From assembly GCF_030013595.1 (NCBI RefSeq), contig NZ_CP122768.1: a stretch of 64,000 bases of DNA. One strand, 5' to 3'. The notes under the pieces are model-generated. The model had not been told where the DNA came from, did no database searches, and saw nothing but the letters and a program-made list of their open reading frames with translations. Each line of letters begins with the position of its first letter. The first letter of the stretch is position 1. A program made the position numbers and the translations under genes. The stretch is from Escherichia coli (GTDB taxonomy: Bacteria > Pseudomonadota > Gammaproteobacteria > Enterobacterales > Enterobacteriaceae). Positions 28,447 through 31,871 of this stretch are shown here, one piece after another.

Positions 28447-29607
28447 TTATGCCGGATCGACTGGTACCACATTCTCGCTTGGGTAACAGCCCAGGACTTT
28501 CATCGAGCGAGTGATTTCACCTAGCTCTTTCAACGCCTGTTGCATTTCCGCTGATTCCAGATTGGCCTGAATATCCAGATAAAACATCTCTTCCCACGGG
28601 TTTCCGTGAATCGGGCGTGATTCCAGACGGGTCATAATCAGATTGTGGTTGCGCAGTACCAGCAACGCTTCAACCAGCGCACCAGCTTGTTGGCCGGTCG
28701 CCATTAACAACGTCGTTTTCGCCGGAACCTGGTCAGAAACGTTAATGGCTTTACGTGCCAACACCACAAATCGGGTGAAGTTTTGTCGCTGATTCGCTTC
28801 AATACGCTCCAGTACCTGCAAACCGTACAAAGTGCCGCCAGCTTCGCTTCCCAACGCAGCAATATGCGGTGATTTTGCCTGTGCAACCTTTTCCATTGCC
28901 GCAGACGTACTTTCGGTATATTCAATCTTCCAGTGTGGATAACGATTAAGGAATTTGCTGCATTGCTGGAATGGCTGCGGATGGCTGTAGACCGTATTAA
29001 TGGTGGATAAATCAGTAGTGCCGGAGACCAACAAACAATGGTCGATAGTTAACGTCATCTCGCCAACAATCGACAAACTGGTATGTTGCAGCAGATCGTA
29101 AACGTCGTTTATGGCACCGGAGCTGGTATTTTCAATCGGTACGACGGCATAGTCGGCCTGGCCGGTTTCCACCTGATTAAAAATATCGGCAAATTTGGCG
29201 CAGCCACTTTCAATGAATTGCTCAAAGTGACGGGCAGCGTACTGACGAGCGGCAAGATGTGAATAGGAGCCTTTGGGGCCGAGAAAAGCAATGCGGGCAG
29301 AGTGTGGATTAATTTTATTGAGATGTTGCTGGAGCAAAGCCTGCTGAGTTAATACGGAATCTTCAATGATGAGCTGGAACAGGCGAGTAATGTAATGGGC
29401 GTCCAGATGGTGCGCTTTACCGAGCGTAATTAATCTTTCCAGTAAATCGCGTTCACGATCAATATCACGTACCGGGCGATGCGAGAGCAGTTTGGCTTTT
29501 CCCACCTCGACGGCCAGTTCGCGCCGCTCTGCGAGTAATGCTAATAATTTTTCATCCAGCGCGCTGATTTTCTCTCGCAGCGCCAGTAACGGGTTTTCCG
29601 ATGTCAT
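28447..29607 (-). CDS. pheA: Bifunctional chorismate mutase / prephenate dehydratase PheA
   Basis: 386 aa, [39 protein letters not shown]... Confidence 0.95.
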
Positions 29608-29630
29608 AGTGTTGCCTTTTTGTTATCAAT

Positions 29631-29660
29631 AAAAAAGGCCCCCCGATTTGGGAGGCCTTA
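29631..29660 (-). terminator. pheA attenuator terminator (minus strand GGCCTCCC-AAATC-GGGGGGCC + T6)
   Basis: GC-rich hairpin followed by T-run on the minus strand between pheL and pheA. Confidence 0.7.
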
Positions 29661-29705
29661 TTGTTCGTCTTCGCATTCTGTTTCACACGACGAAACGCCT
29701 CCCAT

Positions 29706-29753
29706 TCAGGGGAAGGTAAAAAAGAATGCGAAGAAAAACGGTGTGTGTTTCAT
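29706..29753 (-). CDS. pheL: pheA leader peptide PheL (15 aa: [15 protein letters not shown], seven Phe codons)
   Basis: Minus-strand ATG AAA CAC ACA CCG TTT TTC TTC GCA TTC TTT TTT ACC TTC CCC TGA read directly. Confidence 0.85.
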   Translation of the reverse strand: [15 protein letters not shown]

Positions 29754-29809
29754 GTTTGTTTCCTTAAGTGACTTCAGTACAGTACCCGTACTGTTTTCAC
29801 GCTGTCAAC

Positions 29810-29832
29810 AAAAAACGCGCCCGAAGGCGCGT
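29810..29832 (-). terminator. Intrinsic terminator downstream of raiA (minus strand AACGCGCC-TTCG-GGCGCGTT + T5)
   Basis: Inverted repeat ACGCGCCCGAAGGCGCGT with A5 on + strand immediately upstream (T5 on minus). Confidence 0.55.
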
Positions 29833-29856
29833 TGGCGATACACTCAATATAAAGGA

Positions 29857-30252
<396 letters not shown>

Positions 30253-30445: not shown

Positions 30446-31871
30446 TAATGCCAGTCAGTTAAGCAACTTACTGGCTCTTTTTCGGGGCTGTGGGGTATTT
30501 CCAGGGCCTCTCCTTTACCACTCTCGGGAAGGCCCTTTCCCTTCTTGTCGGTAATTTCACAAGTTGTCCCATACTTGCAAGATCGCGCATCAGCTCCGGT
30601 ATACGTCCCGGTGAAGCGCCCTGCAATGTCATCAGCATTCTCATCACCATTCCGCATGATTCTGAGAAACTCAGTTGATTCGGCCAGTAACCTTTCAGAT
30701 GTTCCGCCATTTTAATCATCTGATATCTCACCAGATTATAAGCCAGTAAGACACCCCACAGCTCTTGCTCCACAAGCTCCGGTTTTTTACTTCTCAGCGT
30801 CAGCCTGCTCAGTTGCATCGTCTGTTTTATCTCCCTGTATCCCAGTTCGATTTCCCAGCGATGACTGTACAGATCCGCCATTTCTCCTCCGGGGAAGCGC
30901 ATGGCGTCCGTCATCGACGTCAGCAGATGGCAGACTTTTCCTTTGCGCGTCACGGTCAGCAGGCGGGCTGTCACTTCATTTCCCAGTCCCGGCCACTTTT
31001 TTCGTGCCTGCGGGCTGGTTTTCAGCTTCACCAGATGATCGCCTTTACCCAGTTTTCTGATCTCTTCATATTGCGCTCCCTTTCTGAGAGGTATCATCCA
31101 GTGGCGGTGTTCTCCCGCCAGGCTCCAGGCATTTAACAGTCCCAGTGAGTAATAACCTTTATCCATTAACGTCAGAGTGTTATCGCCGGTTTGTTCTATA
31201 AGTTGCTCAGCAAGCTCATTTTCGCTGTTCTTCATCGTGCCGAAGGCTGCAGCCGTCAGCAGATGGCTGGTCAGTTCCATCTGGCAGACCATTTTGACCT
31301 GCGGGTAGAGCGCCGGGTTCCCGGCATGTGTCTGGCGGGGGAAGGCTGCATCGTTCTCTGGTGTATCCGGTGTGCGCCAGAACACACCATCGATGGCCAG
31401 CAGGGTCAGGCCGCACCAGTGCGGATGCGGCGTGGCGTTATGCCAGAGCTGCGCTGTTTTCGTGAACACGCGGCGGACAGCCTCACTTCCCAGGCGCTGG
31501 CGGGCCTGAATAACGGCACTGGGAGCAACGAAGGGGCGATTGCCCGGCAGCATGATGTCCAGGCGATTCACAATCTGGTGAAGAGGTTCTTTACGCTCAA
31601 GCGCCATGCCAACAATACACCAGACCATCATTTCGAGGGGAAGACGGCGCTTGCGTAGCGTTACAGTACCTGATTCGGCAAGGCAACGAGAGATGAGTTC
31701 GGGATCGAGGTAATCCCCCAGAGAAGTCAGTGGGTTACGCAGAGAATCGTAACGGGATACCAGATCAAGAGCCTGTCCAATGTGCATAAAAAAATCCGGA
31801 AACAAGTGAGCGTTTCCGGATTCTTACACAGCCACTGGATCGGTCAACTGATCCTTAACTGATCGGCATTA
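30446..31871 (-). mobile_element. Insertion sequence IS4 (1426 bp) with imperfect terminal inverted repeats TAATGCCAGTCAGTTAAG / TAATGCCGATCAGTTAAGG
   Basis: Terminal IRs read from sequence, length equals canonical IS4, single IS4-type DDE transposase ORF, flanking direct repeat. Confidence 0.9.
30468..31805 (-). CDS. insG: IS4 family transposase (InsG)
   Basis: 445-aa ORF matching recalled IS4 transposase; true start may be an internal ATG (MHIGQALD...). Confidence 0.9.

Follow-up and report, generated by a model that had tools for sequence, protein, structure and literature searches.

The window, by which we mean the whole stretch of 64,000 nucleotides of Escherichia coli DNA that was analysed, very probably carries an ordinary E. 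coli pheL-pheA attenuator with the common, ancestral allele of the leader peptide (Thr4, codon ACA), and the difference from K-12 at this codon is effectively neutral. The first-pass annotation, which was made from the letters of the window, had presented this Thr codon as a departure from K-12 and as a strain marker rather than a functional change. Alignment with K-12, a count of alleles across complete E. coli genomes, comparison with other Escherichia species and predicted folds of the leader RNA all bear on this description, and they lead to a different view of which of the two alleles is the variant.

The pheL leader, its attenuator and the surrounding genes

The pheL leader-peptide ORF occupies 29706..29753 on the minus strand, where translation gives 15 amino acids and an end of the form UUC_CCC_UGA; reading the same interval on the plus strand was rejected, as its translation is nonsense. 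Codon 4 (29742..29744, minus strand) is ACA, encoding Thr, exactly as had been read at first pass, and the alignment sets it against ATA (Ile) in K-12, with 29743 as the polymorphic base. Seven of the 15 codons on the minus strand encode Phe, arranged as FFF, FFF and F, and the 3' end of the gene, ACC TTC CCC TGA, carries the UUC_CCC_UGA that marks group A pheL. E. coli E2865 and CH4796 have an annotated pheL (RefSeq protein WP_001386991.1) with exactly this DNA sequence, and under this accession the Thr4 allele is already known. A precomputed match to Pfam PF28163 (PheL) is on record for the pheL of GenBank chromosome CP057738.1, whose DNA is the same as that of the window.

The ORF forms part of a complete Phe_leader attenuator RNA (29629..29754, minus strand), matched by Rfam RF01859 over model positions 1-125 of 125 with a score of 132.2 bits (E = 1.4e-24), where the gathering score is 55. 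Since this match is full-length, pheL is no chance ORF. Both the MFE structure and the Rfam consensus structure place the long 1:2 (pause/protector) hairpin at 29663..29739 on the minus strand, corresponding to nt 39-115 of the 149-nt leader. Its 5' arm is made up of the Pro and Phe codons; pairing begins at the G of codon 5, which leaves codon 4 just outside. A 2:3 antiterminator, in which GGGAGGCG would pair with the terminator's 5' arm (GGCCUCCC), is predicted at 29649..29704 (minus strand) by a fold of 29645-29708 on that strand. When region 1 and the 3' terminator arm are left out in silico, this fold has an energy of -23.3 kcal/mol (z = -4.35), and the antiterminator is predicted to be mutually exclusive with the terminator once region 1 is masked. 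The 3:4 intrinsic terminator, which is the attenuator proper, was located at 29629..29659 (minus strand) by a terminator scan and by folds. It has a 10-bp GC-rich stem (29659..29635) followed by a U run and stands 22 nt before the pheA ATG. The regulated gene, pheA (28447..29607, minus strand), lies directly downstream of the leader on the same strand and encodes the bifunctional chorismate mutase/prephenate dehydratase (Pfam CM_2 and PDT; RefSeq annotation of homologous loci).

Set beside the group A pheL of Enterobacteria (Gurvich et al. 2011, PMC3082878) and Rfam RF01859, the pheL of the window is a typical member and shows no differences. In group A pheL as in the window, a short ORF contains a run of Phe codons and ends in UUC_CCC_UGA, and the structures for pausing, antitermination and termination come between it and pheA.

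The gene set of the locus is standard for E. coli, with aroF and tyrA on the plus strand and pheA, pheL, raiA and bamD on the minus strand. An IS4-family transposase (30468-31805, minus strand; 445 aa; Pfam Nterm_IS4 and DDE_Tnp_1) sits between raiA and bamD; CP057738.1 has the same raiA/IS4 transposase/bamD arrangement, and the E. coli regions that match best likewise carry an IS4 annotation. A TTGACA hexamer at 29803..29808 (minus strand), recognised from its sequence only, is the likely -35 element of the pheL-pheA promoter. A consensus scanner called no sigma-70 promoter at pheL-pheA, where the -35 is a perfect TTGACA and the -10 is too weak. The terminator hairpin of raiA (AACGCGCCTTCGGGCGCGTT followed by a T run; 29814-29833, minus strand) abuts this hexamer, and because the hairpin runs directly into it the tail of the raiA terminator would overlap the pheA promoter.

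Comparison with K-12, allele frequencies and polarity

Window positions 29560-29860 (minus strand, 301 bp) were aligned with three RefSeq E. coli chromosomes. The K-12 derivative JM109 has ATA, translated as Ile, at pheL codon 4, and MG1655 differs by exactly one base from the window's 61-mer centred on this codon. The first-pass statement that K-12 has ATA/Ile was accurate, and it is ATA, not ACA, that K-12 shows in the alignment. Over the 301 bp K-12 and the window differ at only two positions, 29743 (C in the window, T in K-12; codon 4) and 29775 (G in the window, A in K-12). Measured against the textbook K-12 pheL (WP_010723158.1), 47 of the 48 bases of the ORF are alike and both locus and mechanism are the same; the stretch that begins with codon 5 and runs past the terminator to the pheA start shows no difference at all. 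The seven Phe codons and the downstream hairpin had been described as intact, and translation, together with a terminator identical to that of K-12, confirms this. In S. flexneri 2a the nucleotide sequence of pheL is that of K-12 (PMC3082878).

The second difference in the leader region (29775, minus strand, from the alignment) is a G in the window and an A in K-12 and E2865. It lies downstream of the promoter hexamers and upstream of the Shine-Dalgarno sequence of pheL, and is the one base by which the window departs from E2865, pheL itself being without differences. The 48-nt ORF, the peptide, the attenuator RNA and the gene context are identical between the window and the WP_001386991.1 pheL of E2865, O157:H7, 042, S88, ATCC 25922 and EC958. 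Not one of 5,425 complete RefSeq E. coli genomes matches the 301-bp leader region exactly, and the best match over 24 kb among complete RefSeq E. coli genomes is 98.9%. The notion that the codon-4 change is unique to the window was rejected: the base that sets the 301 bp apart is 29775, and G is common there, the G-carrying 61-mer having an exact match in 685 of the 5,425 complete E. coli genomes. CP057738.1 (GCA_013896775.1) is identical to the window over all 3,161 bp compared, pheL included; the haplotype of the window is real and deposited, though absent from the RefSeq complete E. coli set.

Alleles were counted in 5,422 complete E. coli genomes with 61-base queries centred on codon 4, for which only an exact match reaches 99% identity. 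As shares of a RefSeq set biased towards laboratory derivatives of K-12 and clinical clones, and not as natural population frequencies, the Thr4 (ACA) 61-mer of the window accounts for 3,560 genomes (65.7%), the Ile4 (ATA) 61-mer of K-12 for 1,383 (25.5%), an allele combining Thr4 with Ile13 (ACC->ATC, RefSeq WP_001700969.1) for 428 (7.9%) and other alleles for about 51 (0.9%). Genome N96, sampled from this last group, has a synonymous ACG at codon 4. In total, at least 3,988 of the 5,422 complete genomes (73.6% of this set) have Thr at codon 4, and strains with a Thr allele include O157:H7, 042, S88, ATCC 25922 and EC958. RefSeq product names ('phe operon leader peptide' vs 'pheA operon leader peptide PheL') were tried as a proxy for the allele and set aside as unreliable, PCN061 having the K-12 61-mer under the other label. 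The survey of pheL alleles suggested at first pass thus places Thr4 in the majority. The marker half of the first-pass description is misleading on this count, Thr4 being carried by at least 73.6% of the complete genomes; its other half, neutrality, is well supported.

Polarity was assessed with a degenerate pattern for the 11-aa tail of PheL, run on contigs at one genome per species, which returned at least 120 Enterobacterales loci; E. fergusonii, E. marmotae and Salmonella are not among the pheL loci listed. All four of the non-coli Escherichia species among the matches listed have Thr at position 4, namely E. albertii (MKHT, codon ACT), E. whittamii (MKQT, ACG), Escherichia sp. E1V33 (MKQT, ACG) and Escherichia sp. 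MOD1-EC7003 (MKHT, ACA). Since Thr is present in all four, by parsimony Thr4 is ancestral in Escherichia and the Ile4 of K-12 is derived. Ile4 would have arisen by a single C->T transition in the lineage leading to K-12-type strains. The polarity implied at first pass, with Thr4 as a departure from K-12, would be the reverse of the actual one: the ACA of the window appears as the common and ancestral state, whereas the ATA of K-12 appears as a derived minority allele.

Across the wider family the position is far from fixed. Among the at least 120 Enterobacterales species listed with an identical tail, the residue before Pro is L in 29, T in 28, V in 19, K in 16, I in 13, F in 11, Q in three and H in one; 19 different codons are used there, and the two residues ahead of it also vary. 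The occurrence of eight residues agrees with the variability stated for group A pheL, in which only the initiator AUG, the Phe codons and UUC_CCC_UGA are invariant (PMC3082878). ATA before Pro is unused among the at least 120 other Enterobacterales pheL listed, the 13 with Ile having ATC (10) or ATT (3), and among these matches the ATA of K-12 is an unusual codon choice for the pheL family.

Two further features of this collection stand apart from codon 4. At least nine species (Kluyvera, Klebsiella and one Enterobacter sp.) have an apparent GTG instead of ATG as the start of pheL, for example GTGAAACTCATC in Klebsiella oxytoca. The metagenome-assembled 'Enterobacter sp. UW_MP_ENTER5_1' has two different pheL leaders on two contigs, MVRKPFFF... 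(also found in Serratia grimesii) and MKQTPFFF... (the Enterobacter type), which suggests a mixed or contaminated bin.

Codon 4 and the attenuation decision

Phe-dependent attenuation at pheA is established for K-12 (cited in PMC3082878 and PMC9291695), and from the near-identity of the two sequences we infer the same regulation of pheA in the window. The ribosome on pheL would act as the sensor of Phe-tRNA supply. RNA polymerase would pause after the 1:2 hairpin, and the ribosome translating pheL would free the paused polymerase; in vitro, the pause hairpin of pheL responds to NusA (PMC9291695). When Phe-tRNA is ample the ribosome would get to the UGA, the 1:2 and 3:4 hairpins would form and transcription would end before pheA. 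When Phe-tRNA is scarce the ribosome would stall on the seven Phe codons and cover region 1; the 2:3 antiterminator would then form and RNA polymerase would continue into pheA.

Codon 4 corresponds to nt 34-36 of the 149-nt leader, and pairing in the fold starts only at nt 39. The codon is upstream (5') of every attenuator stem, and columns 1-15 of the Rfam consensus, codon 4 among them, are unpaired. Leaders with ACA and with AUA have the identical MFE structure, both at -51.7 kcal/mol, and their ensemble energies are -54.22 (ACA) vs -54.16 (AUA). Because codon 4 would be read ahead of the Phe run and lies 5' of all stems, the choice between Thr and Ile there would play no part in the decision. 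The first-pass expectation that attenuation is unaffected is in keeping with these models, which place codon 4 outside the stems, predict the same fold for both alleles and give no sign of a change.

Incidental +1 frameshifting at CCC_UGA is reported for pheL, and it stays at the wild-type level in constructs with only the last three wild-type codons (PMC3082878). Further upstream, an effect on frameshifting (2-fold) is reported for just one residue, the Pro at -10 (pheL codon 5), and frameshifting has no effect on pheA expression (PMC3082878). That Thr4 and Ile4 would be neutral for pheA expression is well supported, since the predicted attenuation structures fold alike, the position is variable across species and the one upstream residue with a reported influence on frameshifting is codon 5.

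A third PheL protein allele, T13I, is found in E. coli 4012, SL124 and ACN001, among the 428 carriers in a set of 5,409 complete genomes. Its codon 13 is homologous to window positions 29715-29717 and the changed base, unlike codon 4, falls inside the 1:2 stem. In the one Ile13 leader that was folded, a U of the hairpin loop is additionally replaced by A (UGAAAGGG vs UGAAUGGG). This leader is predicted to keep the same structure, with an MFE of -50.6 vs -51.7 kcal/mol, a gap that reflects the codon 13 and loop changes together. Relative to CCC_UGA, codon 13 occupies position -2, at which a change to Gly raises frameshifting by about 50% (PMC3082878).

A functional role for codon 4 is very improbable. 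It would require that ACA, in place of the rare AUA, alters the speed or the frequency with which the leader ribosome starts and arrives at the Phe run, and so shifts basal read-through into pheA. Coupling to the polymerase would be shifted, and the window would carry the efficiently translated form, with the K-12 allele either tuned or slightly impaired. Codons 3-5 can influence translation efficiency in general, and AUA is a rare codon in E. coli, read by a low-abundance tRNA. Codon 4 would lie inside the footprint of the initiating ribosome, and the absence of ATA at this position among the at least 120 other Enterobacterales species listed, despite 13 with Ile, points the same way. Across those species, however, eight residues and 19 codons are tolerated at position 4, the ATA allele has been kept in about a quarter of complete E. 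coli genomes, and both alleles are predicted to fold into one and the same RNA structure. The sufficiency of the last three wild-type codons for wild-type frameshifting, with no reported role for upstream residues even in this side reaction (PMC3082878), likewise argues against it. A small kinetic difference between leader ribosomes on the ACA and ATA alleles may nevertheless exist.

Were there such an effect, it might be the ATA of K-12-type strains, and not the ACA of the window, that constitutes the functional variant, through an attenuation slightly sensitive to the minor tRNA-Ile or through a slower leader ribosome; we regard this as highly improbable. If true, the split between Thr4 and Ile4 would be a small lineage-specific re-tuning of phenylalanine biosynthesis, the effect would belong to K-12 and the window would still be in the unmodified ancestral state. 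A sequencing or assembly error as the source of ACA has a negligible probability, given that the same ACA 61-mer occurs in 3,560 independent complete genomes, that the base blocking a 100% match over the 301 bp is 29775 and not codon 4, and that the independent chromosome CP057738.1 is identical over 3,161 bp including pheL.

K-12 as the reference for pheL

An ordinary attenuator with the ancestral Thr4 allele, effectively neutral relative to K-12, is the reading we prefer. Its biological weight is small, as that of an ordinary polymorphism, and Thr4 in the window tells only that the strain is without the K-12-type allele. It carries a caution for the species as a whole: the sequence of K-12 does not always represent E. 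coli at large, and the textbook pheL with Ile4 would be a derived minority form. Before a difference from K-12 is named as a variant, its polarity should be established from the population and from outgroups.
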